Shown: piece by piece, positions 40,612-64,000 of the stretch
Layout of the letters: the number at the start of each line of letters is the position of its first letter
How positions within the stretch are numbered: position 1 is the first letter of the stretch
Source of the DNA: Thermoplasmata archaeon
Lineage (GTDB): Archaea > Thermoplasmatota > Thermoplasmata > Lutacidiplasmatales > UBA184
Direction: 5' to 3'
DNA: 64,000 bases
Assembly: GCA_021809545.1 (NCBI GenBank)
Contig: JAKAYL010000002.1
Span: 2,340 to 66,339 of the forward strand
Notes under the pieces: model-generated
Database searches by the model: none
What the model saw: the letters and a program-made list of their open reading frames with translations, nothing else
What the model was told of the DNA's origin: nothing
Position numbers and translations under genes: made by a program

Positions 40612-41181
40612 TCAGTAGGGAGTTCCGCACTTGTTGCAGAACTTGCTGTCGGGGGAGACCCTCGGGGAGAAGCACTTGGGGCAGCTTCCGGTAGGGACCG
40701 CGGCGGCAGCGGGCGAACGAGCGGGCACGTTCGGAGAGGAAACCTCGGTGGGCACCACCGAGGGTTCGGGAGCGCTCCCTGCGAGGGGGACGAGCGCCTC
40801 CCGGGCCCGGTCGAGGAAAAGCCCCGGTACGATCCCGCCGAAGAGGAAGGCGAGGAGGAGACGGCTCCCCCCGAGCACGGAGCGGCTCTGCGCGTAATTC
40901 CTCTTCTTCCAGAGGAGCAGTTGGCCGGCGCGGACGGTGAACGCCAGGTAGAGGTCCACGGCACCGCCGATGGCCAGAAGGCCGAGCGCGACGACGGGCA
41001 ACCCTTCCCACGGGAAACGCGGGGTGACGTAGATGGTGTACCCTATCCATGCGGCGAGGACAACGAGAACCGCCCCGATACCACCGGCGGCCGCGGTCAT
41101 ACGCTTCAGTTCCTGATCCGCCACCTCGGCCTCGACCGGGAGCGGTTCCTGCCTTTCGCTGCTCATGCTTGCTGTCCTCAT
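40612..41181 (-). CDS. Membrane protein with C-terminal zinc ribbon
   Basis: About 3 TMs; CPKC...FCNKCG; GAGGAG before ATG 41181. Confidence 0.75.
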   Translation of the reverse strand: MRTASMSSERQEPLPVEAEVADQELKRMTAAAGGIGAVLVVLAAWIGYTIYVTPRFPWEGLPVVALGLLAIGGAVDLYLAFTVRAGQLLLWKKRNYAQSRSVLGGSRLLLAFLFGGIVPGLFLDRAREALVPLAGSAPEPSVVPTEVSSPNVPARSPAAAAVPTGSCPKCFSPRVSPDSKFCNKCGTPY

Positions 41182-41188
41182 CTTCTCC

Positions 41189-41743
41189 TCACAGCGGGCA
41201 CGTGTGGGCGTGACCGTCCATGGCGTAGACCGTAGTGAGGAATGTGCTGCTGCCATCGAGGATGACTCCCTCCTGCCAGGCAACGAAATTGATCCCGTAC
41301 CCGAAGCTCAGGCAATCGTACTCGGAGGCTGTGAGCCAGGTCGAGTTGACCGAGGCCCCGTCCAAGCCGCGGGCGAGGCTGTAGTTGAGCAGGTGGACGG
41401 GTTCCGAGAGCTCGATGTACGAGCTCAGGGGAGAACCCCCGGAGACGTTCGCCGTGGCGACGACGAAATCCGACGTGACCTCGATCGAATAGGCGTGCCC
41501 CGAGATCTCGGCAGGGAGTTGGACCCCGACGAAACTATGGTTGTAGAAGAAGGGCTGCGAGACGCTCGCCCCCACCCCTTCGATACGGTCGATGTGGTCC
41601 GCCACGAGCGAGGCCACGTTCCCGAGCCCGATCCCGAGCGCATAGTTGTTCTCGGCCGAGGCAAAGATCACGTCGGCAGTGACCACGAGGCCCAATACCA
41701 GGATCGACACGATGCCGAGGGAGATCGCCCAATCGTAGATCAT
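41189..41743 (-). CDS. Pilin-like/accessory protein with N-terminal hydrophobic helix and no charged leader
   Basis: MIYDWAISLGIVSILVLG followed by an amphipathic helix; ATGA-coupled to the upstream pilin. Confidence 0.65.
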   Translation of the reverse strand: MIYDWAISLGIVSILVLGLVVTADVIFASAENNYALGIGLGNVASLVADHIDRIEGVGASVSQPFFYNHSFVGVQLPAEISGHAYSIEVTSDFVVATANVSGGSPLSSYIELSEPVHLLNYSLARGLDGASVNSTWLTASEYDCLSFGYGINFVAWQEGVILDGSSTFLTTVYAMDGHAHTCPL

Positions 41744-42279
41744 GGGAGGATCTTGACCTCCACGAAGGTCTTCGCGTAGGTCGAGGGGACCCCGCAGAGG
41801 GGCGAGCCCAACTCCACCTTGGTGAAGCCGAGGGTGTAACTCCCGGACGGGAGCGTGAGCGGGAGCGAGGTGGGATGGCCCGCCTGGCAGGAGAAGTTGC
41901 TCGCGTAAACGAGGGTCGCCCCGTTGTCGAACTGCACAAGGTACGAATGCCCCCCGATGAGGAACGTCACGTACGTGGCGTTGGGGTTGAGAGTGCTACC
42001 CTGGAAGAGCGCGGCCCCCACCAGGATCTTGCCCTGCTGGTTCACCGTGACTCCGAGGGTGAGGGTCGTGTTCGCGCCCCCGTCGTAGGTCTCCACCACG
42101 GTATTCGCGATCGAGGAGGCCTGTTGCTGGAGCGCCAAGAATTGCTGGCTGGTGAGGTAGGTGGCGAGCGCGCTCACCATGATGGGGATGACGATGAGCA
42201 GGATGATCACGATGATGATGAGCTCGAGAGGGACGTCGGTGACCCCCCGGCGGTTGCGCCGCGCGTGCCTTCCCCTCAT
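41740..42279 (-). CDS. Type IV pilin-like protein (class III signal peptide)
   Basis: MRGRHARRNRRG|VTDVPLELIIIVIILL; ATG 42279 overlaps the upstream TGA. Confidence 0.8.
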   Translation of the reverse strand: MRGRHARRNRRGVTDVPLELIIIVIILLIVIPIMVSALATYLTSQQFLALQQQASSIANTVVETYDGGANTTLTLGVTVNQQGKILVGAALFQGSTLNPNATYVTFLIGGHSYLVQFDNGATLVYASNFSCQAGHPTSLPLTLPSGSYTLGFTKVELGSPLCGVPSTYAKTFVEVKILP

Positions 42280-42776
42280 GTGACGATCACCAGCGAGGTC
42301 GAGTAGGTCTGCGAGGAGGAGCCACCCAGGGCTCCCGGGGGATCGTAGAGGGCCGAGATGGGGAGGACACAGCTGTTCGAGTGCGCCGGGAGAGTCGGGA
42401 TCGGGAGGAGGAACATCGCGGTCCCGTTCGAAAGCGTGTGCTGGATCTGGTCGATCCCGCACCCGTCGACCGTCACCGTGACCCCGCCTAGGGTGCCTCC
42501 GGACTGGGCCCAGGCCGTGGCGAGGAAGAGGAGGGGCTGCTTCCAAGCCCCGAAGACGTTCTCCCCCGCGAGAGAGCCCGAGGGGGTGGCCAGAGACAGG
42601 GAGTTGAGCGTGTGGGCACGGGAGTAGACGAAGAGCTCGAGGAGTATGCTGGTCCCGACGGCGATGAGGAGCATCGAGATGAGGAGGGTGAGCGGCAATC
42701 CCTCGAGGACCCCCCGGCGGCTGCGAAAGAGCCGGGCGCGGCGCCCGTGGCCCGATGATCCCCTTCTTCCCGACAT
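42276..42776 (-). CDS. Type IV pilin-like protein (class III signal peptide)
   Basis: RSRRG|VLEGLPLTLLISMLLI followed by a small Ig-like domain. Confidence 0.8.
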   Translation of the reverse strand: MSGRRGSSGHGRRARLFRSRRGVLEGLPLTLLISMLLIAVGTSILLELFVYSRAHTLNSLSLATPSGSLAGENVFGAWKQPLLFLATAWAQSGGTLGGVTVTVDGCGIDQIQHTLSNGTAMFLLPIPTLPAHSNSCVLPISALYDPPGALGGSSSQTYSTSLVIVT

Positions 42777-42794
42777 GCTTTGCCTGCCTCCGTC

Positions 42795-44909
42795 CTAACC
42801 GATGACGCTCACCACATAGACGCCGAGGGCCGATGCGAAGAGGAACACGAGTACGGCCACCCAGAGGTACTTGCCCAACATCATGCGGAGCGAGATGGGG
42901 TCCCCGCCCGACTCCACGCCCGTCGTGAAGAAGCTGATGACCGCCACCATCTCGATGAGGAAGGATCCTAGAACGACGAAGAAGACGGGGATGGACACGG
43001 AGAGCAGGCCGCCCGCGATCGTGTTCGACAGCAGCAGGTAGAGCGCTCCCGTCATGCCGAGCACCATGGGCGAGAGGCTGAAGGCGGTGGCCTTCATCAT
43101 CGAGGTCGTGGGCTTCAGGGCGTTCGTCAACGTCCGGTCGACCTGGCGGATCTGGTTGAGATAGTCGGCCATGGGCACCACGGTCCGCCCCACGGCCTCG
43201 GGTCCCTTCGAGGTGGCCTCAAGGAGGGCGCGCATCGAGACCTTGACGAGGCGCGAAGGATAGAGCTCGATGAGGCCCGGACCCTTGGTCCCCCCGAAGA
43301 TGACCTGGTCAGCCGGGGCTCCCGTCACCCGCATCGAGTGCACGATCCTCCGGAAGAAGACGGCGACCTCGGCGCCCGACATCGACTCCGCGGTCCGCTC
43401 GAGGGCGCGTTCCATCGACATCCCTTCGGTGATCCGGTTGCCCACCTGGAAGAGGGCGTCCGGGATCTCGTTCTCGAGCTTCTGGAGGGCGCGCATCGCC
43501 GCGTACGAGTCCCGGTTGTTCAGGAAGAAGTAGGTGGAGAGACCGCAGCCGACGCCTGCGACCAGCGGGAGGACGTAGAGCGGTTCGAAGACCGACCCGA
43601 TCCATCCCGCGTAGAACGGGTAGGCAACGGCACCGACGAGAGCGCCGACGAGGAGGGAGAGAAGGGTGACCGTCGTCGCGGGGAGCGTCTCCTGCACCTC
43701 CCCGGGATGGGGGGGCTTGATCGTCCCCGGTCGCTTCGAGAGCACCTGGGCAGAGTAAAGGTAGGCCATGAGGGGGAAGAGGACCCCGATCAAGAGGATG
43801 AACCCCACATTCACGACCAGGATCTCGGACGGAGGCAGCGGCTGGGAGGCCAGGGACCCCGTGGTCCCGGTCGCCTGGAGCGCGGAGGGGGCCCCGAAGG
43901 TGTTGAGGTTGGCGAGGAAGATGAGCGGGAGCATGGCCCCGATGATCATGGGAAGGAGGATCCCGAAGGCGAAGAGCACGGTCGTCGGGCTCTGCATGGC
44001 CACGGCGAACTCCTCGATCTTCTTCTGCGTGCTGGTGAGGATCGTCTCGAGCCCCTTCTCCAGGCTCTTGGCAAGACCCTCGTCAGTGTGCTCCATCGGG
44101 GCCATTCGGATGGAGTACATCGCCCGCTTGAAGTCCTCGTTCCAGTGCCCCCACTCGTCGGCGAAGGACATGAAAGCGTCCTCGATGGAGGACTTGACCT
44201 TGGTGTGCACATCCCAGAGGACCTTCTTCAGGCTCCCCGCCAGCGGCTCGTCCACGTTCTCGCTGGCGTAGCGCACGGCGAGGTCGAGGGAGGGGTTGAG
44301 CCGCATGGACATGACCATGTAGTAGACGGTCTCCGGGGCCCGTCCCAGGGCCTGGACCCGCAGGCGGTTCGAGAGCCAGAAGGGGTAGTTGTAGAGATAG
44401 ATGTAAACCAGGAAAGGAACGGAGATGATGCTGACCGCGAGGAGACCGCTGAAGATCCCTATGATGAAGGCGGAGAGGGCCAGGGTCACCACGAAGACCG
44501 CGAGGAGGACGGCGGCGGTGAGGATCGTGCCGACGATCGCCGTTGCGTACACCTCGTGGGGTGTCACGTCGAGGCCGGAGAAGTACAGCTCGCGCTTGAG
44601 CTGCACCTGGTTCACCACCTTGTCGAGGTAATCCACCCTCTGCTTGAGGGACCTTGCCCGGGACTTCAGGCGTCGCATCTCCTGGGTGTGGGAACCCTCG
44701 AGAAGCTCGGTACGTGCGAGGGAATCCTCCACCTCCCGAAGCTCGGTCCGGGCCTTGTCGAGCCGCTCCGCCTGAACCTTCCGGGATTCCTCCGAGGCCA
44801 GCTTCCGGGAGTACCCCTGGCCGATGTGATGGCACAACCAGACGTACCAACCGCCCTCGGCCTCGTCGTCCATGACGGGGTCGGGGGCCCCCGGTCCGTT
44901 CATGGGCAC
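42795..44909 (-). CDS. Type II secretion F/TadC-like membrane platform protein (two domains)
   Basis: Two repeats of soluble helical domain plus TMs (APETVYYMVMSMRLNPSL; EIPDALFQVGNRITEGMSME); adjacent to the ATPase. Confidence 0.85.
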   Translation of the reverse strand: MPMNGPGAPDPVMDDEAEGGWYVWLCHHIGQGYSRKLASEESRKVQAERLDKARTELREVEDSLARTELLEGSHTQEMRRLKSRARSLKQRVDYLDKVVNQVQLKRELYFSGLDVTPHEVYATAIVGTILTAAVLLAVFVVTLALSAFIIGIFSGLLAVSIISVPFLVYIYLYNYPFWLSNRLRVQALGRAPETVYYMVMSMRLNPSLDLAVRYASENVDEPLAGSLKKVLWDVHTKVKSSIEDAFMSFADEWGHWNEDFKRAMYSIRMAPMEHTDEGLAKSLEKGLETILTSTQKKIEEFAVAMQSPTTVLFAFGILLPMIIGAMLPLIFLANLNTFGAPSALQATGTTGSLASQPLPPSEILVVNVGFILLIGVLFPLMAYLYSAQVLSKRPGTIKPPHPGEVQETLPATTVTLLSLLVGALVGAVAYPFYAGWIGSVFEPLYVLPLVAGVGCGLSTYFFLNNRDSYAAMRALQKLENEIPDALFQVGNRITEGMSMERALERTAESMSGAEVAVFFRRIVHSMRVTGAPADQVIFGGTKGPGLIELYPSRLVKVSMRALLEATSKGPEAVGRTVVPMADYLNQIRQVDRTLTNALKPTTSMMKATAFSLSPMVLGMTGALYLLLSNTIAGGLLSVSIPVFFVVLGSFLIEMVAVISFFTTGVESGGDPISLRMMLGKYLWVAVLVFLFASALGVYVVSVIG

Positions 44910-44963: not shown

Positions 44964-46925
44964 CTATCGACCACCATGCACTGCCTTGGCGAACCAGGAC
45001 CGCCATTCCGACAGGACCTGATCGTAAGAAAGGGTGTGCGCCCGCTGCTCGTCCTTGTGGCGCTCCATGATCTCCCAGAAGACCGTGTTCGAGGAACTCA
45101 CCCAGTTCGCGCCGAGCAGGTCGGGACGGTTGTGCTCGGCAGAGAAGTTCACGATATCCTCCCGGTACTTCCCGCGGACGCTGATGTTCTGGAGGGCCTC
45201 CTCGTAGGACATTCCCCACGAGTCGGCGATGGTACGGATCCGCTGCGAGGCCTTCGCCATGCGCTTCCCCATCTCCATCGAGTCGGTCTCCTCCTGGTAC
45301 GACATGAGATCCTCGAACACCCCGAGGTCCGGCGCGTTCTTGTCGAGCTCTGCGATCTGGGTCACCCGGCGGGACTGGGTCCGCACCGAGCCGCCCAGAT
45401 TCACAAGGCCGGAGATGACCACGATGTCCGTGGCGTTGAAGGAGGTGGGAGCGATCCCGAGGTCGTGCACGACCCGCTCGTAGACGGAGTGGGCGCTGTT
45501 CCCGTGGATCGTCCCGAGCACCGCGCTGCCGGCGGTGCCGGCCCGCATGGCCTCGTAGAGGGTCTTCGCCTCGTGACCCCGCACTTCACCCAGGATGATG
45601 GCGCTCTCTCCGAGACGGAGGGAGACCTTGAGGGCGTCGTCCACGCTGAGCTCGCTCTGCTGTCCCGCCACCGCGCTCCGCACGAAGATGGTCTGGACCT
45701 TGTAGCCCAGCCGCCGCATCTCGATGGTCGGGAGCTCGAGCGTATCCTCAACGGTCAGGATGCGTTGGCTCTTCGGGAACTCGAGCATGAGGGCCCCGAC
45801 GAGCGAGGTCTTTCCAGCCCCTCGCGCCCCCGAGACCAGCATGGCCGAGCGGCCATCCACGAGGAAGGAGAGAAGGCCGGCGGCCTCCGGAGTGAGCGAT
45901 TTCATGCTGATCAGCTTGAGGAGGGTCCAGGGATCCGTCGCATGCCGCCGGAGGGTGATGGCGATCCCGTCGGGGGAGAGCGGTGGCCCGATGACCGAGG
46001 CCCGAGTGTTGTACTCCTTGAGGTCCGTCTCGAGGATCGGCATCGCTTCCGAGTAGGCCCGGCCGCTCTCGATGCGGAGGCGGGCCAGGATCGACTCGGC
46101 CTCCTCATCGGTGAGGATGATGTTGGTCAGCGCCTTGTCCCCGATCCGGGCGTCGGGATACCCAGTGATCCTCAGATGGATCCGGTTCTCCGAGGCGGGC
46201 GCATCGATGTAGACATCCTGGATGTGCGGATCCTGCAGGAGGAGCTGTACGACACCGAGGCCGGTCACGTGCCGTGAGAGGATCTCCGAGAGTTCCTTGA
46301 GCCGGGCGAGCGTCGCGCTCGATGTGCTCCCGAGGCTGATCCCCAGCTCCTTCGCCCGCTTGTAGAGCAGCTTCTCGACCACATCCTCGACGTACTGCCG
46401 GGTCTGCTCCATCCGCACGAGCTTCACGTGCTTCGGATACCATTGCAGGAGTTCCTTACGGACGGAATCGAGCAGGTGGATGTGCTGGGGGGTGAGCTTG
46501 TAGTCGGACAGGTCCAGATGATAGAGGGTGTCGATCTCGTTGGGGAGCTGGTAGATGGAGACCCGGCTGCGGCCGAGGGCGTACTGGTGGAGGAGTACCC
46601 CGTTCTCCGGGTGAGCGCTCGCGATCCAGCAACCCGAGAAGCCCGGGCGCGTCCGGACATCTCTCTGGAAGATGTGGCGGATCCCTTCGTTCATCCGAAC
46701 GGAAGACACCGCCTCCAGGTTCCGCAAGGCGAGGATGGCGGGGGGCAGCGGGGCTGCGGACCGGGCAACGGGGGGAGTCGCCGATGCCGGTCGGGGCGGG
46801 GGTGCGGCGGCAGGGGTAGATTTCGGCAAGGCCTTCCCGCAGGAGCTGCAGAAGGCGCTCCCATCGGGGCTCGCTCGCCCGCAGTTCGTGCATCGGGGGC
46901 TGTGGGCTCCGGTTCCAGCGATCAT
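44964..46925 (-). CDS. Type II/IV secretion (TadA/VirB11/PilB-like) ATPase with N-terminal zinc ribbon
   Basis: Walker A GARGAGKT, Asp box TVEDTLEL, Walker B IILGEVRG and GTIHG; CTNC...CSSC at the N-terminus. ATG 46925 overlaps the upstream TGA. Confidence 0.93.
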   Translation of the reverse strand: MIAGTGAHSPRCTNCGRASPDGSAFCSSCGKALPKSTPAAAPPPRPASATPPVARSAAPLPPAILALRNLEAVSSVRMNEGIRHIFQRDVRTRPGFSGCWIASAHPENGVLLHQYALGRSRVSIYQLPNEIDTLYHLDLSDYKLTPQHIHLLDSVRKELLQWYPKHVKLVRMEQTRQYVEDVVEKLLYKRAKELGISLGSTSSATLARLKELSEILSRHVTGLGVVQLLLQDPHIQDVYIDAPASENRIHLRITGYPDARIGDKALTNIILTDEEAESILARLRIESGRAYSEAMPILETDLKEYNTRASVIGPPLSPDGIAITLRRHATDPWTLLKLISMKSLTPEAAGLLSFLVDGRSAMLVSGARGAGKTSLVGALMLEFPKSQRILTVEDTLELPTIEMRRLGYKVQTIFVRSAVAGQQSELSVDDALKVSLRLGESAIILGEVRGHEAKTLYEAMRAGTAGSAVLGTIHGNSAHSVYERVVHDLGIAPTSFNATDIVVISGLVNLGGSVRTQSRRVTQIAELDKNAPDLGVFEDLMSYQEETDSMEMGKRMAKASQRIRTIADSWGMSYEEALQNISVRGKYREDIVNFSAEHNRPDLLGANWVSSSNTVFWEIMERHKDEQRAHTLSYDQVLSEWRSWFAKAVHGGR

Positions 46926-47731
46926 GCTTCCCCCTTCGCGTCGGCGGCAGGCTCCGCAGGCTCGCCTTCGGTCCGGCCCGACAAGCGCAGGTGGGCCTCC
47001 AGTTCGACGAGCTTCTCCGAAAGTGCCACAAAGTCCGAGGCGGAGGAAGCGAGGCATCGGCTGCAACCTTCCTCCTTCGTGCCCCGAGAGAGCGCGAGGG
47101 CCTTGGCACGGAGATCGGAATCGAAACCGCTGTATCCGGAGAGCAACGCCCGGTTCATCGCCGGGAACATGGTCCTAGGATTGTACGGACAGTTCGGGCA
47201 GTCCAGGTGCCTTACGACCCGAAGGATGGCGGCACGCTCCGACCGCAGGTGGCGGGCGACCTCGGCCGCATGCTTTGGCCCCGAGATCCGGAACGTGGGG
47301 TCGGCCGAGAGCAACGGACCGGGGAGCACTCCCGGGCCCGAGGCCATCGCCTCCAGCTCTGCGATGACGCCATCCACCTGCCCGTCAGGGAAGATGAGCC
47401 CCGCAGTGAAGGGGTGAGGCGACCGTAGGGAGAACTGCTCGATGAGCTTGGTGAGCGCGACGAGGGTCTTCAGGAAACGGACCGAGTCCCCGACGTACTG
47501 CCGCTCCATCGCCCCCGTGATGGTGATGGTGTCCACGTAGGGCTCCGTGGTGAGGATGTGGGTGACGACCGACATGCATTGCGAACTCAGTATCCCGGAG
47601 GGCCCTTCGCAAGCCGCGCACTTGAGGACGAGGTTCATCGACCGGCCCTCGGACTTGATCTCGTAGGTGAACTGCGGAAGTCGGTTGGCGTAACTGGTGG
47701 CCTCTCCTTTGGTGTTCTTTGCTTTCGTCAT
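46922..47731 (-). CDS. Cys-rich soluble protein coupled to the secretion ATPase
   Basis: CAAC...C, CPNC and CSRC; ATGA overlaps on both sides. Confidence 0.7.
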   Translation of the reverse strand: MTKAKNTKGEATSYANRLPQFTYEIKSEGRSMNLVLKCAACEGPSGILSSQCMSVVTHILTTEPYVDTITITGAMERQYVGDSVRFLKTLVALTKLIEQFSLRSPHPFTAGLIFPDGQVDGVIAELEAMASGPGVLPGPLLSADPTFRISGPKHAAEVARHLRSERAAILRVVRHLDCPNCPYNPRTMFPAMNRALLSGYSGFDSDLRAKALALSRGTKEEGCSRCLASSASDFVALSEKLVELEAHLRLSGRTEGEPAEPAADAKGEA

Positions 47732-49455
47732 GTTTCGCTCCCCCGCTGACGGGAAATGGTCCTCCAAGCGACGTAGGCTACTGCGCCCGCGACCACGAGG
47801 CCGATCGACCCGTACTCGAGATAGACGAAGGGGTCGAGGGCGGGCGGTGCGGCTGCGGTGGTCACCACGATGGCCACGGAGGTGGACGTCCGCTGTCCCT
47901 GGAAGGCCGAGATCACGACAGTGACGGTGTAATTGGTGGAGAAGCTCAGCCCTCCGACGGTCACCGGCCCGGGAAGGGCCACGGAGAAGTCCTTGGGGAG
48001 CACGGAATTCCCGCCTGGGACCTGGGGAACCACGCTGAGCGATATCCCGGTGAATCCCACGACGGTCGAGGGGAGGGACCAGGTCACCGAGAGGGAGGCG
48101 GTGGGGTCTCCCGCCGAGGGAGAGAGAGCGACCGCGGAGGTCAGGGCCGCCGGTGGGGTCGGGATCCCCTCATCCGGGGCAATGGTGAGTTCCCAGGAGT
48201 TGGCCGAGACCTGATAGGCCTGACCGACGGCGAGCGTGGCCTCGTTGGCCGAAAGCGCGACCGAGAGGATGGCGCCAGAGGTCACCAGGGAGCGGAAGTC
48301 CGCCGTGGAGCTCTGGGGCATCCCCGGGTAGAGGTAGTACCATCCCACATTGCTGGTCGACCAAGAGACCTCGAAGTAGTCGGGAGAGGAGGCGGCAAGC
48401 ACCGCGCTCGTGATCCCCGCCGGGAAGACCGTGCTCCAGGAGATGGCGTACGAGCTGCACCCTGCGGTGGCGGAAGCGTTGAGGTAGGTCACCCGGGTAC
48501 CCGCGGCCACCAGCACCTGGCAGCCGTTGGTGGAGGAGGAGACCGAGAGGGCGTCAATGAACGTGTTGCTGGTGTCCCCGTCGAGGGCGCTCTGGGAGGC
48601 GACGGTGGCCGCGAAGAAGCCCGTCACAGCGGTCGCGAACATGTGGCTCCCGTCTCCGGAGATCACGGCATCGCTCAGCCTCTCGGCCGGACCCGGATTG
48701 GGCAACCCTCCGATGGGGCTCCATTCCGCCGTATAGGAAGCCTTCTGGCCGCCGCTTCCCTGGTTCCCGGAGAAGACGAAGACGGCGCCGTTCCCGTTCG
48801 CGTCGTTGGAGCCGACCACGAACCAACTGCCGTCCGTGTCCATCGAGAGGTCGGTGAAGCTCTGCCCCGTGACGACGGAGTAGAAGGCGAGCTGGGGAGA
48901 GGAGAGTGGGTTGGTATAGTAGGAGACGTTGAACCCGGGGAGATTGGTGCCGGGATCGACGAAGGTGGCGACAACCACGAGCGCGTTGCCGTCCTGGGAG
49001 ATCGCGGCGTGGTCTACCGAGCCCTTGACGGCGGACCCGTCCCCCTTGTAGTTGGAGCCGGTCCATATCGGGGAGGCCCCCGAGACGGAGTAAAGGTACG
49101 CGGAGTTGTTCGCCGTGAGCAGGACCTCGGGCGTTCCGGCCGGTCCCGACAGGGAGATCATGGTAGAGGTAGCATTACCCGGAAGAGACCAGTTCTCCAG
49201 CGGCGTGGACGAGCTCGTGCCGAAGAGGTACGCATGATCCCCTGTGGAGGTGGCGACAACGTAGGAGCCGTCAGGAGCCGTCGCCACGTGGGCGACCCCG
49301 GTGGGGGCTGGGGTCGAATAGTTGATCAGAGCGGGAGGCGCGGTGAGGGGATGTACGGCGAAAACGGGCCCGGCGGAGGAATGGGCGGAGGAGGGAAGGG
49401 CGGTGAGCAACAGGGGGACGATGACCAGAAGGGGAAGTACCTTGATCCAGCTCAT
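47728..49455 (-). CDS. Membrane-anchored beta-propeller plus FN3-like surface protein
   Basis: Signal peptide MSWIKVLPLL; repeated S-x-DG/APDG blade motifs; GLSFSTNYTVTV; C-terminal TM. Confidence 0.75.
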   Translation of the reverse strand: MSWIKVLPLLVIVPLLLTALPSSAHSSAGPVFAVHPLTAPPALINYSTPAPTGVAHVATAPDGSYVVATSTGDHAYLFGTSSSTPLENWSLPGNATSTMISLSGPAGTPEVLLTANNSAYLYSVSGASPIWTGSNYKGDGSAVKGSVDHAAISQDGNALVVVATFVDPGTNLPGFNVSYYTNPLSSPQLAFYSVVTGQSFTDLSMDTDGSWFVVGSNDANGNGAVFVFSGNQGSGGQKASYTAEWSPIGGLPNPGPAERLSDAVISGDGSHMFATAVTGFFAATVASQSALDGDTSNTFIDALSVSSSTNGCQVLVAAGTRVTYLNASATAGCSSYAISWSTVFPAGITSAVLAASSPDYFEVSWSTSNVGWYYLYPGMPQSSTADFRSLVTSGAILSVALSANEATLAVGQAYQVSANSWELTIAPDEGIPTPPAALTSAVALSPSAGDPTASLSVTWSLPSTVVGFTGISLSVVPQVPGGNSVLPKDFSVALPGPVTVGGLSFSTNYTVTVVISAFQGQRTSTSVAIVVTTAAAPPALDPFVYLEYGSIGLVVAGAVAYVAWRTISRQRGSET

Positions 49456-57600: not shown

Positions 57601-58874
57601 TTCAACCCGGCGACGACCTGCAGCCCCACCGAGAGCGAGAGACAGTACTTGAACGAGGACAAGGTGGCGGTCAGTTGTCCCTGGAAGTCGAGGTAGGGGC
57701 GGATGTAGAAATAGGGCCCGACGATGGAATAGTAGAATTTCGTGTCGACCTTCGGCACGTCGGCGTAGGCCCATACATCGAAAGAGGCCTGCAGGGTCGG
57801 GGCGGTGACCGTCGTAGTGTTACTATACTTGCTGATCGGCTGCCATCCGTTCGCGGAGCTGTACTCGAATCCCGCCTCCGCGGTGAAGGTATAGTCGATG
57901 GAAGCGCTCACTTGTGCGTCGACCGTGACCTGGACCCCCAGCACGATCTCCGGGGTGATGGAAATCTCCACGGGGACCGGGCCGATGTCGAACCAGAGGT
58001 TCCAGGTGGTCAGCGGGTAGGTCACGCTCGCCTGGTAACTCACCTTGTCGGAGATCGAGGCGGAGAGAAGGGCATCGTTGGTCATCTCGAGCTTGACCGA
58101 GAACTGGTTGACATTGATCCCGCAAGGGACGAAGAGACACCACTTGAGGGAAACGTCGAGGTAGGCCTTGAGCTCGACATCGAGGGAGTCCGTGGCGGAG
58201 ATCGAGATCGTGACCACGTTCGACCCACCCTTGAAGTGGGTGGTGGTCTTCCAAGTGTACCCGTACGTCTGCGACCAAGAGAGGAGAGTCACGGTCCCGC
58301 CCGCGCTGATATCCGTGGTGACGTGCCCATACTTGGCCACCGCCTGGGAGTACTCCATCGGACCGTCGATCCACACCTTGCCCTGAAGGATGACGTTCGT
58401 GATGGAAGCGTTCGTTGTGTTGAGGATGTATTCTCCGTTCGCAAAGAGCTTCTGCGTGACCACCCGGAAGACCCCCGGCTGCTGGATGCTCACAAGGACG
58501 GAACCGGGCTGTACCCCCTGGATCTGGGTGGCCGTGTATCGGAAATAATAGACAGAGCCTTGCACCGCGAGGAGCTTTCCCATCGTGGAGGGCCCCAAGA
58601 CCATGACCTGTTTGTTGATGTAGACGCCCTGGGTCTGCACAACGTACCCATTGCTGAAGTAGGTGCCGTTCGCCACGGAGGTGGCATAGTTGTTGATATC
58701 ACCGACCTGGGAGGTCGTGGAGGGGACGGCCTTCGCAGAGACCGGAGCTGCCACGTTCCCCGGGGCTATCTGGATCGCTGAAGCACCGGAGGAAAGGACC
58801 AGGATGCCCAGTACGAGGAAGACGTAATGTGCGGGGTGGCTCCTCAGGCTCCACAGATCCTGCCACAGCGCCAT
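54696..58874 (-). CDS. Secreted multidomain putative peptidoglycan hydrolase: beta-rich domain, 2 PKD, GH18-like, lysozyme/SLT-like and Amidase_6-like domains
   Basis: Signal peptide; GYKGYVVDFEP; GF...MAYQES...GILQL...FNP; YNRNAAVSYA...DCAHFVS...LQPGD...DHVAVIV...DAHT; no C-terminal TM. Confidence 0.8.
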   Translation of the reverse strand: MALWQDLWSLRSHPAHYVFLVLGILVLSSGASAIQIAPGNVAAPVSAKAVPSTTSQVGDINNYATSVANGTYFSNGYVVQTQGVYINKQVMVLGPSTMGKLLAVQGSVYYFRYTATQIQGVQPGSVLVSIQQPGVFRVVTQKLFANGEYILNTTNASITNVILQGKVWIDGPMEYSQAVAKYGHVTTDISAGGTVTLLSWSQTYGYTWKTTTHFKGGSNVVTISISATDSLDVELKAYLDVSLKWCLFVPCGINVNQFSVKLEMTNDALLSASISDKVSYQASVTYPLTTWNLWFDIGPVPVEISITPEIVLGVQVTVDAQVSASIDYTFTAEAGFEYSSANGWQPISKYSNTTTVTAPTLQASFDVWAYADVPKVDTKFYYSIVGPYFYIRPYLDFQGQLTATLSSFKYCLSLSVGLQVVAGLKKIGLQFWGLSLTVDVNLVVTLYSQQWMLWQYPAGCAGGGGGGIGGPLKVSNTVGPVSGNIPLQVNFATTPSGGSPPYNYTWNFGDNSALNYSSATSHNYTAQGNYQATLTVRDSAGNSVSNTFAITVKVPKLTARASVSPGSGEASATTFQFEGAAAGGLPPYAYSWNFGDGSTSTSQNPAHVYSAEGRYTATLTVTDGQGTTATSVIAVAITAPPAYFLPVVCQSCAWIGNASAFSSTYTALVPDMQDLAEYGYELTPSGGFEPASWFLNPQNNLTSWGQKNSLPVFATITAGGCPAASLQTFLSSGAGAQAHFIQSAVGVAQASGYKGYVVDFEPTPCDGVGVSSGEGVLFGNFMHSFASALKAKGLQLDALVGSSSLWETGNSGSDFWFLPAMAGAGVTWYLKDFTCSVTGYEQAIQTLQAAGLTGNQLGALLSSVNCAGSPNALPAMESEANWSVYHHLQNLGWFALDDGGAAIPNTEFWNFLYTLEHPPAVGGGGGGGGGGGGGGGGGGGGAGAGCPDQSYYQNGHSLNLQAAVDCAMNGGFPSSALVITVVSMAYQESTFCPGAIEGGSGACSTVAPNSGCQALGILQLGHPAQTSPSGQCLQPQPVPQGEPSPITGYPSYSQCSGATDWGGVYFNPTCAFEWSYAEYQDCGNSFSCFWGSYISGAYCKWAPNGFTGTGSVRCSGYNQNQANLPWSTVCPNDQCTTGSSGGGPGSGAYNRNAAVSYANTYWNEVNKDGYFWLCGGLLSPSQDGGPGATITSYENNNGCDCAHFVSSAIGDDGGGGVPIEKLPDATSGGPYGIPSAPHLVGDMLNAKWATSVTNGLVPATSVSSAQLSQLQPGDFIGYNWNDVTGTNIWNVDHVAVIVSTSGGRILVDAHTDSQNGVSWEMSSAASVWLVHVTYNGQPPATPISGSGYHAISPVTIALHTTHPALENLGMGFPVLMVAASPPSRFGTAPQAP
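56052..56111 (-). repeat. Poly-glycine linker (20 consecutive Gly codons)
   Basis: Counted directly; all four GGN codons are used. Confidence 0.9.
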
Positions 58875-59141
58875 TCCTTCTTAGTGCCCCGCTCTCCCGA
58901 AAGTGACTGCGCCCGACGGCGCATCGTGTGATATATATTGGCATAGTACCATATATTCCTTCCGGTAAGAGACGGCAAAGCGACGCCCAGAGATTGAGAA
59001 AGGCCCCGACGGACGGTCCGGTAGATTTCGCTTCAGGAGGGGGAGGGGTCCCCATCTGGGAAGTCTCCCCCAGATTCAAGAGACCGGGCGAAAGCCTTTT
59101 AGCCCCGCCGAGGTTGCTACGCCAACTCACGGGGCTGGAAA

Positions 59142-59699
59142 ATGCGAACGAGATACTTGCGGGGGAATCGCCGAGGTGCGTTGGAAGGAGTGCCGTTGTA
59201 CCTGATCATTCTGATCGTCATTGCAGCGATCGTCGTGGTGATCCTGCTGGGCTGGCTCTCTAGCATTCAGCATCCCACGATAGGATCGGTCGCGACCACC
59301 GTCGGTGGTTCGAGCACCATGACCATCAGCGGGACGACCTCCTGTTCGGGAACGGCGTACTGGTGCTTCACACCGGACAACGCGACCGGAGGATGCCGCT
59401 ACACCTACCTGCAGTCCGCAACCCAACCCGCCGTCCAGATCCAGGTCCAAGACAGCCACGGGAATCCCCTCGGAGGGGTCACCGTCACGCTCACGGCGAA
59501 CTCGGGAGTGAACATCACAGGGGCCAACATCGCCAACACCGGGTCGAACGGGATCGCCGCCTTCTCCACGCTCACCGGTTCCGTTAACGCCAACACGCAG
59601 AGCGCCACGATCTCGGTATCGGCGTCCTACGGTTCGGGCGGAACCCCGAGCACGGATGGCGGTGGCACCATCATCGTAGACCCACCGGCTGGCTGCTGA
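59142..59699 (+). CDS. Type IV pilin-like protein (class III signal peptide); candidate major pilin
   Basis: GNRRG|ALEGVPLYLIILIVIAAIVVVILL; paralogous to 42276..42776. Confidence 0.82.
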   Translation: MRTRYLRGNRRGALEGVPLYLIILIVIAAIVVVILLGWLSSIQHPTIGSVATTVGGSSTMTISGTTSCSGTAYWCFTPDNATGGCRYTYLQSATQPAVQIQVQDSHGNPLGGVTVTLTANSGVNITGANIANTGSNGIAAFSTLTGSVNANTQSATISVSASYGSGGTPSTDGGGTIIVDPPAGC

Positions 59700-59731
59700 T
59701 CGGGGCCACCCCCCCGACGTGAGAGGGAGGC

Positions 59732-62700
59732 GTGCGCAGGATCTCCCGGCGGGACGGAAGGATACCCTATTCTTTCGTCGCCGTCGTCATCCTCGCCAGC
59801 ATCTTTCTCCTCGTGGCCTCCCTGGAACAGGTCTCCATCGCCACCACGACCCAGAACGCCTACGATGTTCCGGGCGCCACGCAGAACGCGCTTGCCCTGG
59901 TCGAGTCGGACATTTCCTCCGCCGCGCAGTACGACCTCATGCGCTCGGAGGCCAATCTCCTCGCCGGCACGGTCAACCCTTCCCTGAATCTCCTCAACGG
60001 ATCCCTCAACACAGCCTTCACCACCTCGATGGCCGCCCTGGGCCTCTCCTCGCCTCAGGGGTTAACTGAGGGTACGGTCGTAGTCAAGGCGAGCGGCTGG
60101 GGGATCAATGCCACCTTCGCCGAGGGGCAAGTCATGGACGGCACCCCGGCGGTCACGCTGACACCGGGTCCGACGAATCCCTACCTTCCGCTCCCGAACG
60201 AGGTGAACCTCGCGCAACAGACCACGTGGTCGTTCACGACCGAACCCATCTATCCCATGGCGACCGGTCACGTCGTCCTGACCGCTTTGGACGGTAACAG
60301 TGGGCAGACCCTGACCCAGAGCTACAGCTTTTCCGTGAGCGTGCAAAGCGAGCTCGGCCTCCTCGAAGCGAAAGCAGGCCAATTCCGGGATGCCCTCACA
60401 GGGCCCTCGGGCAGCCTCTCCGAGCTCGTGAAGTACCTTGTCACCACCCTGGGAGAGCTGCGGGCGCTCTCGGGGTACGGCTCCGGTGGGTACCCGGGGC
60501 CCACCTCCGGGACCGTGATCTCGGGGGCGACGAACAACTCCGTCCTGTCCCAGTCGGACGTTCGCGATGCCGTCAGTCTGGCAATCCTGCTCGATTCCCT
60601 GAGGTACTTCCGTTCCTTCGACGCCGGCGCCGTCACCTCCTTCCTCAGCAGCATGCCGCCGGGCGCCTATCAGCAACTCCTCGAACACTACGTCTTCAAT
60701 GGCACCATCGACCCCGCTACGCTCTTCCTGCTCTTCCTCGACAGCCAGGGAGGGTGGTCCGATGGCTGGGTCGCGAGCGGTGAAGGCCTGGCAAGCGCCA
60801 TCTATGGGTTCGCGGATCGCTTCAAGTTCGATCTCCTGCAGCACTTCTGGGGTGCCAATGTTGTGGATCCCACCTTGACAGAGCCCGTGGCCAGTTGGTC
60901 GACAGTACAGAGTCAGGGGACCTCGTACGCGATCTCGATGCTCTCTCAGTGGCTCTGGGACTACGGAACCTGGCTGGGGGTGACCCAGAAGTCCCTCCCG
61001 GCCTACAACAACACGGCGACCATCCCGGCGATGACGGCGACGGTGGCGGGATGTACGTACGTGCTTTTCCCAGGGGGTAGCATCCAGACGAGCGACCCCG
61101 GTGTTCCCGATCTTGCGAGCCTCATCTTGGGGACTCCGTACTCAGAGACGATCACGCTCCCGAATAACCAGCAGGTCACGCTGATGCTTGCCCCGGACAA
61201 CTACCAGATCTGGGAGAACGTCTCCATCGACAACCCCGGTTCACCCTACTACTACGCCCCGAACTACTGGATCGATTTCAACGAGAACGCGACGTACATC
61301 ACGACGAACCAATCCCTTCTGTGGCTCTTCAACCCACAGGAGTTCAGCTCCTATGACCCTGGAGCCTACGACCGGACGCTCCACACGGTCATGGTGGACC
61401 TCTCCAACTCGATGCAGCACAAGTCCGCTACGGCGGGGCTGGTCGGGGACAAGGGGTACCTGGATTACGTCGGGTACCAGGGTGACCTGAGCGGCGCCAA
61501 CACCACCCTGACCGGAGCGGGGCTTCCGAACCTCAGCACCCCCGCGGGCAGGAATACCGCGCTCAACACCTCCTACTCCTTCCTCACCAACGGCACCACC
61601 TCCCTTTTCCAGGGACCTTTCTCGCGCACCCTCGCAAACTTCAGCCAGCGGGCGGCGAACCCGGCGAACGTGACCAACTGGTGGGTGAACGGGGCCTCCC
61701 ACCCGACACTCGTCGGCCCGGCGGACCCCCCGACAACGGATGCCGCGAACAACTGGACCATGTCGGCCATCTCGAGCTACGCCGCCCGGGAGTGGTTCCA
61801 GATGCTCTACACGCTCTGGTACGGTTCGGGCGGAACGGTCCCCACCACGGCTCCCGCCGTGAACCAGATCAACTACCAGAACATGGATGCGAGCCAGTAC
61901 AATGTCGTCAGCCCCGGAGTGGAGAGGGCACCGCCTGCGCCCTATCAGGAACCGAACTTTGCTATCAACGTCATGAACGAGACGTTCTACTCGGTCTACT
62001 GCTGGATCACCGGCACGGGCACCGGGATCGGCTGCGGGGGAGAGGACGGGTACCAGTTCTGCCCCAACAACCAGAACTTCTTCGGGGATTGTCTGGGTGC
62101 GACGGCGCAGGACAACCCCAACTACTACTACGGCGCCTGCGGGGGCGGTAACGCGGGGCTCGCCTACAATGCCGCCCTCAACAACTACTACTACCCCGGG
62201 ACGGGTGGGCTCAACAACATGTGGAACGTGGTGCGAACCTCGGTGCTGCAGTCCCTCGCCGGAGGGGTCGACCAGATCCACGCCCTGCTCCAATCCTCGT
62301 GGGACAGTGTCTATAACAACACCGGGGACGCAACCTGGGGCGGGCAGAACTTCACCCAGTGGATCCTCCAGTTCATCGCTCCTCCCATCCTCAACGACAC
62401 CGTCCTCCTCGCCCAGGCGGGAGGCTGGGTGACCCAGCTGTACAACACTACCGAACGCTGGCTCTCGGGCGCGACGAACCTCAGCGGAACCGTGGTGAAG
62501 CCCTGGTTGGACCGGGGAAGACCGTACGCTTTTGCCCTCGGGAACTCCACCCTAGAGACCGCGGACGCACAGGTCTTCAATGAGAGCTTGAGCCAGATGA
62601 CCATGTCCTTCGGTGGCGGTGCCCTCACATGGTCCCTGCCGCAGTACAGCGTCCACCTGGTCGACCCGCAGAACCAGAGCACGAACATGGGAATCGCACC

Positions 62701-64000
62701 CTTCGAGACGAGCTGGTCCATCTCCCTGCAGGGTTCGCTTTCGCTTTCTCTCGTGAGCTCCCGGATGAGCTTGCTCTCCGGAGGGACGCTGCACCCGACG
62801 GTCCTCAATCTGAGCTTGCCGGTCAATTCCCAGACGCTCGTCACGCTCTACACACCCTGGGAGCTCGGGAGCGGTTGGGACAACCTCCCCACACCCCTTC
62901 CGGGAGATCCGACCCTGCTCAACACGCGAGGGCTCACGGGACTCGAAGGACACGACTATCACAGTGCCCCCGCTCTTCTCCCCGGTGTCTATCCGAGCGT
63001 TCCGCTCGATGACCTGCTGCTCCGCACCGCGGCCCTCGGGAGGGTTACGGCCGGCGAGGGGCTCTCGCTTGCGAACCTGCTGGCCGGATACCCCGGGCTC
63101 GCCTCCGGCGGCTCAGCGGCGTGGAGCCAGAATCTGACCCTGCTCGAACTGACCACGAACGCCGGGCTCGCGGCGACCTCCGGCACCTTCCTCACCGCCT
63201 CCCAGACGGATCTGGCGCTCCTGCGGTCCGACCTTTCTTCCGCAGCCCAGGGGGGCGTTCCGCTTGCGTTCGACTTCGGGGCGAACGCCTTCCTCGGCGC
63301 CAACGCGACCTTTGACACGACCGGGCAAGTCGTGAGCTACTTCTGGCCCGCTCCCGCCTCCCCCACGTTCGGTCCCCAAGAGGAGTACACCCTGACATTC
63401 CAAGGTGCCCGCGTCGGGGACGCCTTCACGATCGACAACCCCTTCGTTGTGGCGAACCCAGGAACGAACGGGTTCTCGGGCTCTTGGGGGACCAGCGCCG
63501 CTGGGACCTACCAGCTCCATTCCCTCTGGGTAGAGTTCGGTCAGAAGTACATGCTCAGTCTGAGAGGACCGGCCACCCCGGCCCCGGTCACCTCACAAAC
63601 CGCCACCTACCCCAGTCTCTCAGTACCCTATCTCTTCGGGAAGGGCGGAGGGATTCCGGGCAGCGTGAGTGTCTTCGGCGCAGGGGGGCTCCCCGGAACG
63701 GCCACCTCCACGTTTGTTGCCTCGTTGCCTCCCCCCGGCACCACCGTCACTTTCCCGGACTACATCGCCCAGCAAGAATACGCAGCTGGCCACTTCTATG
63801 ACGATCTGGTTTCCGGTGCGGTCCCCGTGCAGGCAGGGATCGGCGCGTTCGGATACTCGACCGCGATCTCCCAGGGAGGAGCGGGACTCGCCAACTACTC
63901 GCTCTATCTCACAGGGCCCACAGGAGGAGTGTTCGGCTCGGCCGCCGCGGAGCAGAACCTTACTGCGTTCCTCCTCTGGCTCGACGACAACATGGAGCCG
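59732..64000 (+). CDS. Giant (>1400 aa) protein with pilin-like leader, truncated at the window edge
   Basis: Missing from the ORF track. GTG 59732 follows GAGGGAGG and reads MRRISRRDG|RIPYSFVAVVILASIFLLV. The same frame reads sensibly at sampled points (ELRALSGYG, SDVRDAVSLAILL) through AFLLWLDDNMEP at 64000; not every codon was checked. Confidence 0.8.
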   Translation, partial: MRRISRRDGRIPYSFVAVVILASIFLLVASLEQVSIATTTQNAYDVPGATQNALALVESDISSAAQYDLMRSEANLLAGTVNPSLNLLNGSLNTAFTTSMAALGLSSPQGLTEGTVVVKASGWGINATFAEGQVMDGTPAVTLTPGPTNPYLPLPNEVNLAQQTTWSFTTEPIYPMATGHVVLTALDGNSGQTLTQSYSFSVSVQSELGLLEAKAGQFRDALTGPSGSLSELVKYLVTTLGELRALSGYGSGGYPGPTSGTVISGATNNSVLSQSDVRDAVSLAILLDSLRYFRSFDAGAVTSFLSSMPPGAYQQLLEHYVFNGTIDPATLFLLFLDSQGGWSDGWVASGEGLASAIYGFADRFKFDLLQHFWGANVVDPTLTEPVASWSTVQSQGTSYAISMLSQWLWDYGTWLGVTQKSLPAYNNTATIPAMTATVAGCTYVLFPGGSIQTSDPGVPDLASLILGTPYSETITLPNNQQVTLMLAPDNYQIWENVSIDNPGSPYYYAPNYWIDFNENATYITTNQSLLWLFNPQEFSSYDPGAYDRTLHTVMVDLSNSMQHKSATAGLVGDKGYLDYVGYQGDLSGANTTLTGAGLPNLSTPAGRNTALNTSYSFLTNGTTSLFQGPFSRTLANFSQRAANPANVTNWWVNGASHPTLVGPADPPTTDAANNWTMSAISSYAAREWFQMLYTLWYGSGGTVPTTAPAVNQINYQNMDASQYNVVSPGVERAPPAPYQEPNFAINVMNETFYSVYCWITGTGTGIGCGGEDGYQFCPNNQNFFGDCLGATAQDNPNYYYGACGGGNAGLAYNAALNNYYYPGTGGLNNMWNVVRTSVLQSLAGGVDQIHALLQSSWDSVYNNTGDATWGGQNFTQWILQFIAPPILNDTVLLAQAGGWVTQLYNTTERWLSGATNLSGTVVKPWLDRGRPYAFALGNSTLETADAQVFNESLSQMTMSFGGGALTWSLPQYSVHLVDPQNQSTNMGIAPFETSWSISLQGSLSLSLVSSRMSLLSGGTLHPTVLNLSLPVNSQTLVTLYTPWELGSGWDNLPTPLPGDPTLLNTRGLTGLEGHDYHSAPALLPGVYPSVPLDDLLLRTAALGRVTAGEGLSLANLLAGYPGLASGGSAAWSQNLTLLELTTNAGLAATSGTFLTASQTDLALLRSDLSSAAQGGVPLAFDFGANAFLGANATFDTTGQVVSYFWPAPASPTFGPQEEYTLTFQGARVGDAFTIDNPFVVANPGTNGFSGSWGTSAAGTYQLHSLWVEFGQKYMLSLRGPATPAPVTSQTATYPSLSVPYLFGKGGGIPGSVSVFGAGGLPGTATSTFVASLPPPGTTVTFPDYIAQQEYAAGHFYDDLVSGAVPVQAGIGAFGYSTAISQGGAGLANYSLYLTGPTGGVFGSAAAEQNLTAFLLWLDDNMEP

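Follow-up and report, generated by a model that had tools for sequence, protein, structure and literature searches.

Between positions 40612 and 64000 of the 64,000-nucleotide (nt) stretch of contig JAKAYL010000002.1 analysed here (the window), an uncultured acid-mine archaeon of the Thermoplasmata carries a type IV pilus-like locus of the archaeal kind. The locus encloses a gene for a very probable peptidoglycan hydrolase with three predicted catalytic modules, which is paired with a gene for a surface protein with PKD domains. Wherever an enzyme with all three modules was found, this hydrolase cassette adjoined pilus genes. The best explanation, for which belief and doubt are about balanced, combines adhesion pili with a co-located, Sec-exported wall-hydrolase cassette that acts at the cell surface. 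On this view, the conserved pairing of adhesion and surface lysis is probably a functional one.

Linkage of the hydrolase cassette to pilus loci

The window belongs to a genome of 1.96 Mb in 83 contigs, 99% complete (G000). Genomes G000 to G003 represent the window's genus, and G005, G010, G015 and G020 a second genus of the same family. Gene maps were based on blastp searches with the window proteins, and 60 relatives were surveyed. Strong matches to the catalytic region of the hydrolase were present in all three other genomes of the window's genus, in all four of the second genus and in one other genome. The neighbouring family held module 3 only. The ATPase type of the pilus was found in 27 of the 60 genomes. 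Within the family it was restricted to the same two genera, coinciding there with the strong hydrolase matches, and outside the family it occurred in 19 of 24 genomes.

The complete three-module enzyme was detected in seven genomes (G000, G001, G002, G005, G010, G015 and G020). In seven of seven it adjoins a gene related to that of the window's PKD protein (PKD1107) together with pilus-locus genes, in three arrangements across the two genera. The preliminary description had suggested a coupling of enzyme and pilus from this one locus, and the check that it proposed, whether hydrolases recur beside orthologous pilus ATPases, had a favourable outcome in both genera, with paralogs at unlinked sites. 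In G000, the hydrolase/PKD pair lies between the gene of an immunoglobulin (Ig)-like pilin and pilX of the window's locus (locus A). In G001 and G002, one strand carries the giant-protein gene of locus B, the hydrolase, the PKD gene and a small Zn-ribbon gene, separated by 133, 92 and 62 nt, and this run converges on the giant gene of locus A. The third arrangement, that of the second genus, has the pair converging on the giant gene of a B-type locus; in G015, the pair also abuts an A-type pilX. An insert of 7 kb separates cassette and giant in G010. This segment (G010:C5:33433-40559, L022; about 7 kb) contains few open reading frames (ORFs) supported by third-position G+C (GC3). The sister genome G005 lacks it, and it may be mobile or of foreign origin.

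Flanking housekeeping genes and other loci with hydrolase modules served as controls. Transketolase, which flanks locus A in G000, was on another contig than the pilus loci in five of five relatives. Valyl-tRNA synthetase (ValRS), which flanks locus B, was located elsewhere in all four second-genus genomes and was adjacent only in the same-genus genome. Pilus genes are missing near 19 of the 20 other loci that carry one or two modules and had sufficient flanking sequence; two more contigs of this type had flanks too short for the count. The lone exception is a third, divergent pilus-like locus in G005. At this locus (G005:C48:26800-56100; L017, L018), genes for three large secreted proteins lie between the pilin genes and the ATPase. 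One of these proteins has 1402 amino acids (aa), a lactonase-type propeller and PKD; another has 972 aa; and the remaining one, of 1508 aa, contains a GH18-like module in which D-F-E is kept.

The three-module hydrolase and its PKD partner

The cassette and the gene next to it comprise the following features.

54696-58874, minus strand: probable exported three-module wall hydrolase, 1392 aa, 165 nt from the PKD gene
57435-58769, minus strand: N-terminal domain of the hydrolase, 445 aa, found only in the window's genus, 33-34% identity to two orthologs
56949-57434, minus strand: two PKD domains of the hydrolase (PKD_4, E 9.5e-32, above the Pfam cut-off)
56130-56948, minus strand: module 1, GH18-like barrel with D-F-E intact (profile against solved structures)
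55443-56036, minus strand: module 2, Cys-rich and lysozyme/SLT-like, with invariant Y-Q-E-S and G-I-L-Q (motifs, weak Pfam and structural matches)
54699-55442, minus strand: module 3, Amidase_6 (NlpC/P60-CHAP-like cysteine amidase/peptidase; PF12671)
51339-54530, minus strand: PKD1107, 1063 aa, with signal peptide, tandem-repeat region of about 780 aa, three PKD domains and C-terminal membrane anchor (PKD_4, E 1.5e-20)
50824-51336, minus strand: GNAT acetyltransferase (PF00583, E 2.1e-19), 159 nt from pilX and 2 nt after the PKD gene

The hydrolase is composed, in this order, of a Sec-type N-terminus, the 445-aa N-domain, two PKD domains and the three modules, with a poly-glycine linker between modules 1 and 2. 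At the N-terminus, hydrophobic residues 15-38 are followed by A-S-A (hydropathy, by eye). The modules were aligned separately for profile searches, and the triple wall hydrolase proposed in the preliminary description is supported by an Amidase_6 match above the cut-off, a GH18-like profile and a lysozyme-like module 2 with weak matches. Module 3 matched PF12671 with E 1.3e-12 and 48.6 bits, against a cut-off of 23.2. Its DC[AT]HF and [DQG]H motifs are kept in seven of seven orthologs, and module 3 of the orthologs also matches CHAP or NlpC_P60. Module 1 gave only a weak chitinase match in single-sequence searches. Searched against the PDB as a 10-sequence profile, it matched the GH18 structure 4q6t (E 5.2e-9) and YdhD (3cz8; E 7.4e-4), which was deposited as a putative sporulation-specific glycosylase, with the D-x-E motif (DFE) in register. 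The putative catalytic Glu is kept in the window and in all four second-genus orthologs.

Sequence profiles of module 2 matched no solved structure in the PDB. The weak Pfam matches (E 0.002-0.007) were all to lysozyme-like families, namely SLT in 6 of 21 members, Phage_lysozyme2 in 5 of 21 and SLT_3 in 3 of 21. Alignment to E. coli Slt70 with hhalign reached a probability of 8%, yet the catalytic QES and GLMQ (G[IL][LM]Q) were aligned. An AlphaFold model was of middling confidence, with a predicted local distance difference test (pLDDT) value of 63.9 and a predicted template modelling (pTM) score of 0.70. Its structural neighbours include lysozyme-fold chitinases and a GH124 cellulase. Module 2 was found at 21 loci among 185,579 species genomes. 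By record title, these were 16 Thermoplasmata metagenome-assembled genomes (MAGs), two 'bacterium' records that match G001 contigs, and three Micrarchaeota MAGs. On the Micrarchaeota-labelled contigs L059, L061 and L062, from DPANN-type genomes, module 2 is part of giant proteins of 2044, 2718 and 2530 aa, and pilus genes were not detected within 10 kb of these three loci. A 750-aa hydrolase query, aligned over its whole length, matched 129 of 1.84 billion representatives.

The N-domain had no match in Pfam or the PDB, also not with a three-sequence profile, and phmmer retrieved nothing beyond a pair of antibody chains (E 0.0099 and 0.25). Inspected by eye, its sequence looks beta-rich, and polar and hydrophobic runs alternate in it. 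The domain is a candidate adaptor or membrane-active domain. The G005 ortholog, the one second-genus enzyme scanned against Pfam, contains three LysM domains (E 6.9e-20).

Judged from its sequence, the enclosed enzyme is very probably a peptidoglycan hydrolase. Wall lysins typically combine glycosidase, lysozyme-like and amidase modules, and glycosidases are mixed with amidases or peptidases in autolysins and phage endolysins. Compared with YdhD-type GH18 enzymes of Bacillus and with multi-catalytic lysins, the window enzyme is alike in the D-x-E register of module 1, and LysM is combined with GH18 in the second-genus ortholog that was scanned. It differs in its archaeal host, PKD domains, 445-aa N-domain and poly-glycine linkers, and the role that autolysins have in the wall of their own cell is impossible for it. 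Only one Mur-ligase-like gene was found in G000, which matches the wall-less archaea used as controls. The substrate is therefore unlikely to be a wall of the archaeon itself and should be foreign.

Orthology of the PKD partner is clear at the sequence level. Proteins with 33-39% identity to PKD1107 over more than 900 aa adjoin the hydrolase in the six other genomes. A signal peptide and a C-terminal anchor were predicted from hydropathy in six of six partners scanned. The internal repeats of PKD1107 gave a family self-match of 99.5% (E 3e-23), and its N-terminal region had no match among PDB sequences. A word-index homolog search returned four proteins for the PKD partner and one for the hydrolase, the latter search being probably swamped by poly-Gly words. 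The GNAT gene, which follows the PKD gene, had no homologs in the retrieved pilus-locus regions of relatives and was found here only in G000.

Hydropathy indicated a C-terminal membrane segment in four of four second-genus hydrolases and in none of three from the window's genus. A tethered hydrolase on a wall-less archaeon would reach only substrate that touches the cell, and the anchor thus lends independent support to action on contact. Neither the hydrolase nor the PKD partner has the RRG-type leader of the pilins described below; both have ordinary signal-peptide-like N-termini. With a Sec-type N-terminus that lacks a class III leader, export through the pilus machine is unsupported, and so is the display or secretion of the enzyme suggested in the preliminary description.

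The pilus locus, its expression and its surroundings

The window has a G+C content of 65% and consequently many open frames on both strands; one gene set was picked out by GC3 frame analysis. The pilus genes and the intergenic element of the locus are as follows.

50134-50664, minus strand: pilX, pilin-like, RRG|VAGFLEE leader seen in orthologs; first gene of the core operon
49452-50132, minus strand: pilY, pilin-like, RRG|EVAAFD leader seen in orthologs
47728-49461, minus strand: repeat surface protein, 577 aa, with signal peptide, FN3-like part and C-terminal anchor (internal repeat 88%, E 3e-6)
46922-47731, minus strand: Cys-rich cytoplasmic protein, 269 aa, conserved partner of the ATPase
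44964-46925, minus strand: secretion ATPase of the VirB11/FlaI/PilB superfamily, 653 aa, with N-terminal Zn ribbon (PF00437, PF13240)
42795-44903, minus strand: polytopic TadC/FlaJ-like platform, a single gene of 702 aa (weak PF00482; always neighbours the ATPase)
42276-42776, minus strand: pil2, pilin-like, RRG|VLEGLPL leader, ATGA coupling to pil3
41740-42279, minus strand: pil3, pilin-like, RRG|VTDVPLEL leader, ATGA overlap on each side
41189-41743, minus strand: DUF7266-like pilin-like protein, no charged leader (PF23928, E 0.0014, under cut-off)
40612-41166, minus strand: membrane protein with C-terminal Zn ribbon, last gene of the operon (GC3 0.79; weak DZR/Zn_ribbon, E 8e-4)
58925-58960, no strand: AT-rich TATA-like element between the divergent hydrolase and pilin genes, with the only strongly AT-rich intergenic 10-mers in 40-64 kb
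59142-59699, plus strand: Ig-like pilin, 185 aa, with RRG|ALEGVPLYLII leader and Big_1-like domain (Big_1, E 4.5e-7, under cut-off)
59732-64000+, plus strand: giant protein, 1512 aa, ending 270 nt beyond the window (real ORF by GC3 and contig sequence)

Ten tightly packed minus-strand genes extend from 50664 to 40612 and are translationally coupled, with ATG starts. ATGA overlaps occur at four of nine junctions, and the remaining gaps are -10, 1, 18, 22 and 60 nt. The minus-strand pilus genes and the right-end pilin and giant listed in the preliminary description are all real by GC3 and translation. That description had also placed the hydrolase between two halves of a locus. The enzyme is indeed enclosed, but the right 'half' is the pilin/giant pair of the same locus, and the GNAT gene had been overlooked.

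The ATPase matched PF00437 (T2SSE) with E 1.5e-22 and 80.2 bits, against a cut-off of 24.9. Its N-terminal Zn ribbon reached 23.0 bits with PF13240 (E 6.7e-5), under the 25-bit cut-off. Among curated families, its highest scores were 134.7 bits with TadA (TIGR03819, cut-off 373.15) and 106.5 bits with FlaI, both under the equivalog cut-offs. By these scores the ATPase is a member of the superfamily and belongs to neither the TadA nor the FlaI equivalogs. The platform matched PF00482 (T2SSF) with residues 494-618 at E 1.3e-4 and 22.3 bits, under the cut-off of 25.2. Its paralog matches with the other half, residues 216-344, at a weak E of 0.025. A self-comparison of the platform for two repeats was not significant (E 0.03). 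The 'double TadC' of the preliminary description is thus a single 702-aa gene with weak support for two repeats. Weak UpsF/ArlJ matches to NCBIfam-type curated families were also obtained, and in relatives the platform always adjoins the ATPase. With a T2SSE ATPase, a weakly matching platform and small proteins with class III-like leaders, the assignment to archaeal type IV pilus-like loci holds, and that to a Tad/Kil system was abandoned in view of the TadA score and the one platform gene.

Homologs of the Cys-rich protein, which had no Pfam family match, lie directly upstream of the ATPase in seven of ten distant loci. The 577-aa repeat protein had no match in a Pfam scan, its paralog matched fn3 with E 0.0047, and the 'propeller' label given earlier to it and to the PKD protein was confirmed by no family. 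Orthologs of the Zn-ribbon membrane protein hold the same position in relatives. The DUF7266-like protein has a conserved N-terminus, M-x-x-D-W followed by a hydrophobic stretch. A common leader, in which [AV]x[ED] and a stretch of about 20 hydrophobic residues come after [RK]R[GA], was recognised by eye across orthologs of pilX, pilY, pil2, pil3 and the Ig-like pilin. It is kept in 11 orthologs and paralogs of pil3 and in eight homologs of the Ig-like pilin, which is a candidate major pilin. A Peptidase_A24-like gene elsewhere in the genome (G000:C69:15864-16037) reached 26.2 bits against a cut-off of 26.5.

The giant protein had no match in Pfam, NCBIfam or the PDB. Its homologs form only 10 clusters in a word-index search and are always located within these pilus loci. 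The N-terminus is leader-like, with a conserved RS[GA]R|[IVL]PY that is related to the RRG leaders, and the protein is a candidate for an adhesin or a tip protein. A Gly-rich motif, LE[AS]DLGG.GGG...P.V.[LI]GG, is conserved at the C-terminus of every giant, with no transmembrane segment (e.g. L063:4400-4610). It may act as a signal for assembly or sorting.

A paralogous second pilus locus (locus B) lies about 34 kb downstream on the same contig (G000:C36:64000-87400), with the same gene order and an ATPase of 55% identity. It has its own 184-aa Ig-like pilin, 1535-aa giant, 963-aa anchored Big_1 surface protein and 120-aa Zn-ribbon gene, and the giants of the two paralogous loci face each other. 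Two additional, distant ATPases (25-26% identical) are encoded on another contig. The 1.4 kb between the 963-aa surface gene and locus B (G000:C36:75280-76717) show an AT-richer centre and one possible small secreted-protein ORF by eye; this stretch had no match in Rfam. By its encoded proteins, the locus in the window is an archaeal type IV pilus-like locus, probably for an adhesion filament, one of two paralogous loci, and is 'System 2'-like in terms of the features described for that system.

DNA runs containing the stretch were labelled mine tailings, mine drainage and sediment, and it was also present in two metatranscriptome runs of one study. Eighteen contigs of RNA run X16, each of them 99% or more alike to the window, span platform/ATPase, ATPase/Cys-rich protein, the repeat protein, the GNAT/PKD junction, the PKD/hydrolase junction, the hydrolase, the pilin/giant junction and the giant. 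The hydrolase contig ends at 58891, 17 nt before the hydrolase ATG, although contigs cannot prove a start. The pilin/giant contig had the highest word depth, 901, a measure that cannot rank expression. Depth varied from 0 to about 900 in X16 and was flat at about 51 in a DNA run, which argues for RNA rather than carried-over DNA. Holes such as 48669-49335 and 60008-61341 were left uninterpreted. RNA run X20 had seven contigs and covered little. Of the co-expression looked for after the preliminary description, coverage of both gene sets by contigs of one run was found; operons and levels are beyond what contigs can show. A scan for bacterial promoters and terminators was uninformative for an archaeon, with one promoter-like site against 1.0 expected and eight terminator-like sites against 5.8.

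Directly downstream of the pilus operon (31306-40500, minus strand), the window carries a bacterial-style oxidative pentose-phosphate gene run, to our knowledge unusual in an archaeon. It comprises a ROK-like fragment, 6-phosphogluconolactonase, glucose-6-phosphate dehydrogenase (E 1.5e-110), a 915-aa fusion of transaldolase and phosphoglucose isomerase (PGI), and transketolase. A cluster of PKD genes further upstream in the window encodes four large exported proteins. The one of 790 aa has four PKD domains, that of 1121 aa is a pro-kumamolisin (sedolisin-type acid protease) with PKD, that of 1015 aa is a further PKD protein and that of 1249 aa is a PKD/Y_Y_Y protein. Over the window and the 20 kb that follow it, Rfam matched only one tRNA gene (14859-14931, plus strand).

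Comparison with known systems and readings of the association

Among the closest known systems are 'System 2' type IV filaments, such as Haloferax PilB/PilC, whose loci have an extended ATPase N-terminus and one platform gene, occur several times per genome and encode large adhesin-like proteins (Sivabalasarma and Albers 2026, PMC13705601). The window locus is likened to them by these described features. It is also alike in its pilin-like genes with and without class III motifs, its membrane proteins and its Cys-rich and Zn-ribbon accessories; adhesins, S-layer-like, Cys-rich and Zn-ribbon accessory proteins are described in both archaeal pilus surveys (PMC13705601; Makarova et al. 2016, PMC4858521). 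It differs from the published loci in its giant family without a known domain. Neither PMC13705601 nor PMC4858521 mentions a conserved wall-hydrolase cassette in its main text, from which the word 'hydrolase' is absent.

In the Tad-like Kil system of Myxococcus xanthus, killing is tied to minor-pilin tips and a type III secretion system denoted T3SS*, and a linked wall hydrolase is not named in the text available (PMC12075869). Both are type IV filament-class machines proposed to engage bacteria by contact. The variable large tip and minor-pilin specificity of Kil is paralleled by the pairs of giant and Ig-like pilin, which differ between the two paralogous loci. The archaeal machine differs in the score of its ATPase (134.7 against 373 bits for TadA), in a single platform instead of TadB and TadC, and in leaders of the RRG|[AV]x[ED] type instead of the G/XXXXEY motif of Flp pilins. 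Contact killing is the phenotype of the Myxococcus system; none is known for the archaeal locus.

Archaeal wall hydrolases that kill bacteria have been published, and Thermoplasmatota are singled out as having many of them (Strock et al. 2025, PMC12352652). Like the window enzyme, they are exported, carry bacterial-type wall-cleaving domains in a host without peptidoglycan, and show patchy distribution, shuffled domains and several copies per genome. The window enzyme differs by three catalytic modules in one chain and by the rare Cys-rich module 2, and it would fail the selection rule of that study because it has no recognised wall-binding domain. A pilus association and a membrane anchor are not described in the available text of PMC12352652, where 'pili', 'pilus' and 'type IV' do not occur; the same text regards the deployment of such hydrolases as an unsettled question and notes that archaeal antibacterial genes have yet to be mapped by guilt by association. 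A literature search, with the supplements of the pilus and hydrolase papers outside its scope, found no paper describing a hydrolase-pilus association. The parts are of known kinds, and the conserved association of hydrolase and pilus, with a surface anchor, is judged to be a new variation on them.

Under the preferred explanation, the pili and the giant protein would attach the archaeon to bacterial cells or to wall-containing biofilm debris. The hydrolase would be exported by the Sec pathway rather than by the pilus machine and would remain on the archaeal surface or close to it. Its own C-terminal anchor would hold it there in the second genus; in the window's genus it might be held by the anchored PKD partner or might diffuse. 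It would cleave glycan strands and peptide stems of bacterial peptidoglycan. Adhesion and lysis would be coupled by co-location and probably by co-regulation. Candidate outcomes, at the level of conjecture, are the killing of live bacteria, competition or scavenging.

Several observations weigh against this explanation. The putative catalytic Glu of module 1 is replaced in G001 and G002, the two closest orthologs. In the window's hydrolase, Pfam recognised PKD but no wall-binding domain, and a membrane anchor was not found. The seven linked genomes represent two genera of one family, so that the linkage may trace to one ancestral event, and the relocations are short-range. G003, of the same genus and 98% complete, has the locus, and the three-module enzyme was not found there with this query. 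No hydrolase adjoins the A-type locus in G005, G010 or G020. Ten distant loci, examined in 10 of the 19 genomes of other families that have the ATPase type, are minimal, with the Cys-rich protein, the ATPase, the platform and at most a few pilins, and no hydrolase module or giant was found within about 15 kb of them. The pilus core is thus widespread without the hydrolase and does not need it. In a module-2 tree with an unresolved backbone, the linked enzymes of the two genera were not united, and the window copy, on a long branch, grouped with unlinked paralogs (support 80/85); the tree neither shows nor rejects that the linked enzymes arose once. The two genera differ in module order. Domain shuffling is evident from the sequences, and the linked enzymes of the two genera are putative orthologs. 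PKD-tagged exported proteins are abundant in G000, with 88 PKD_4 matches in about 38 ORFs, and further large ones are encoded upstream in the window (22370-31254, minus strand, and 9356-13105, plus strand), 20-30 kb away, so that clustering of surface genes may be generic. The RNA contigs, from two runs of one study, cannot show operons, levels, strand or starts.

Several of these points also favour a linkage without joint function, in which the pili would serve general adhesion or biofilm formation and the hydrolase would be an independent PKD-tagged exoenzyme for competition or debris scavenging, inherited in a cluster of surface genes. These are the large PKD ORFs with the acid protease upstream, the widespread pilus core, the loci without the enzyme, the restriction to two related genera and the paralogous hydrolases at unlinked sites. 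Scavenging is also left open for archaeal wall hydrolases in the text available of PMC12352652. Against this stands the adjacency kept through three rearrangements while flanking housekeeping genes were dispersed, as well as the contrast between seven of seven three-module enzymes linked with their PKD partner and one of 20 other module loci. The position of the hydrolase in G001 and G002, on the same strand and directly downstream of the giant gene, also argues against independence, and a search for the MurQ etherase gave no support for muramic-acid use, with a best score of 25.8 bits against a cut-off of 302 bits and no match above it. Linkage without joint function is a possible but doubtful account.

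A role of the pilus machine itself in displaying or secreting the hydrolase, in the manner of a type II secretion pseudopilus or a bindosome, is highly improbable. The cassette is physically enclosed in the locus, and archaeal type IV filament machines are proposed to be functionalised by cargo with class III signals (PMC13705601, in the text available). The missing RRG-type leaders and ordinary N-termini of hydrolase and PKD partner speak against it; the C-terminal anchor of the second-genus enzymes fits Sec insertion, and unlinked paralogs share the modules with no dedicated machine nearby. The substrate might instead be chitin or another glycan or glycoprotein, for example of fungal walls in acid biofilms or of archaeal surfaces, with a locus for attaching to and digesting non-bacterial material. 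Module 1 resembles GH18, the family of chitinases, some structural neighbours of module 2 point in the same direction, and the window's enzyme is devoid of a specific wall-binding domain. Such a substrate is nevertheless unlikely, as Amidase_6, CHAP and NlpC/P60 enzymes act on the peptide stems or amide bonds of peptidoglycan and the Cys and His of module 3 are kept in all seven enzymes. The best GH18 relatives also include YdhD, and the mix of three modules is typically that of wall lysins.

The stronger proposal of predation proper, a dedicated contact-dependent bacteriolytic apparatus in two acid-mine Thermoplasmata genera, is conjectural and rather improbable. A pilus with an interchangeable giant tip would capture bacteria, and the surface-held enzyme and the anchored PKD partner would open the wall. 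The N-terminal domain of the window-genus enzyme might help to reach the wall.

Altogether, the locus provides a concrete, conserved association of a wall hydrolase with an adhesion machine, predicted to be membrane-tethered in one genus. It also supplies a rare Cys-rich lysozyme-like family, found almost only in archaeal genomes, and a giant pilus-associated family without known domains. Attachment followed by lysis at the surface is a model for antagonism between archaea and bacteria, or for feeding on necromass, in acid mine communities. A contact-dependent bacteriolytic apparatus, if real, would have no described precedent in archaea as a predation-like or contact-killing machine.

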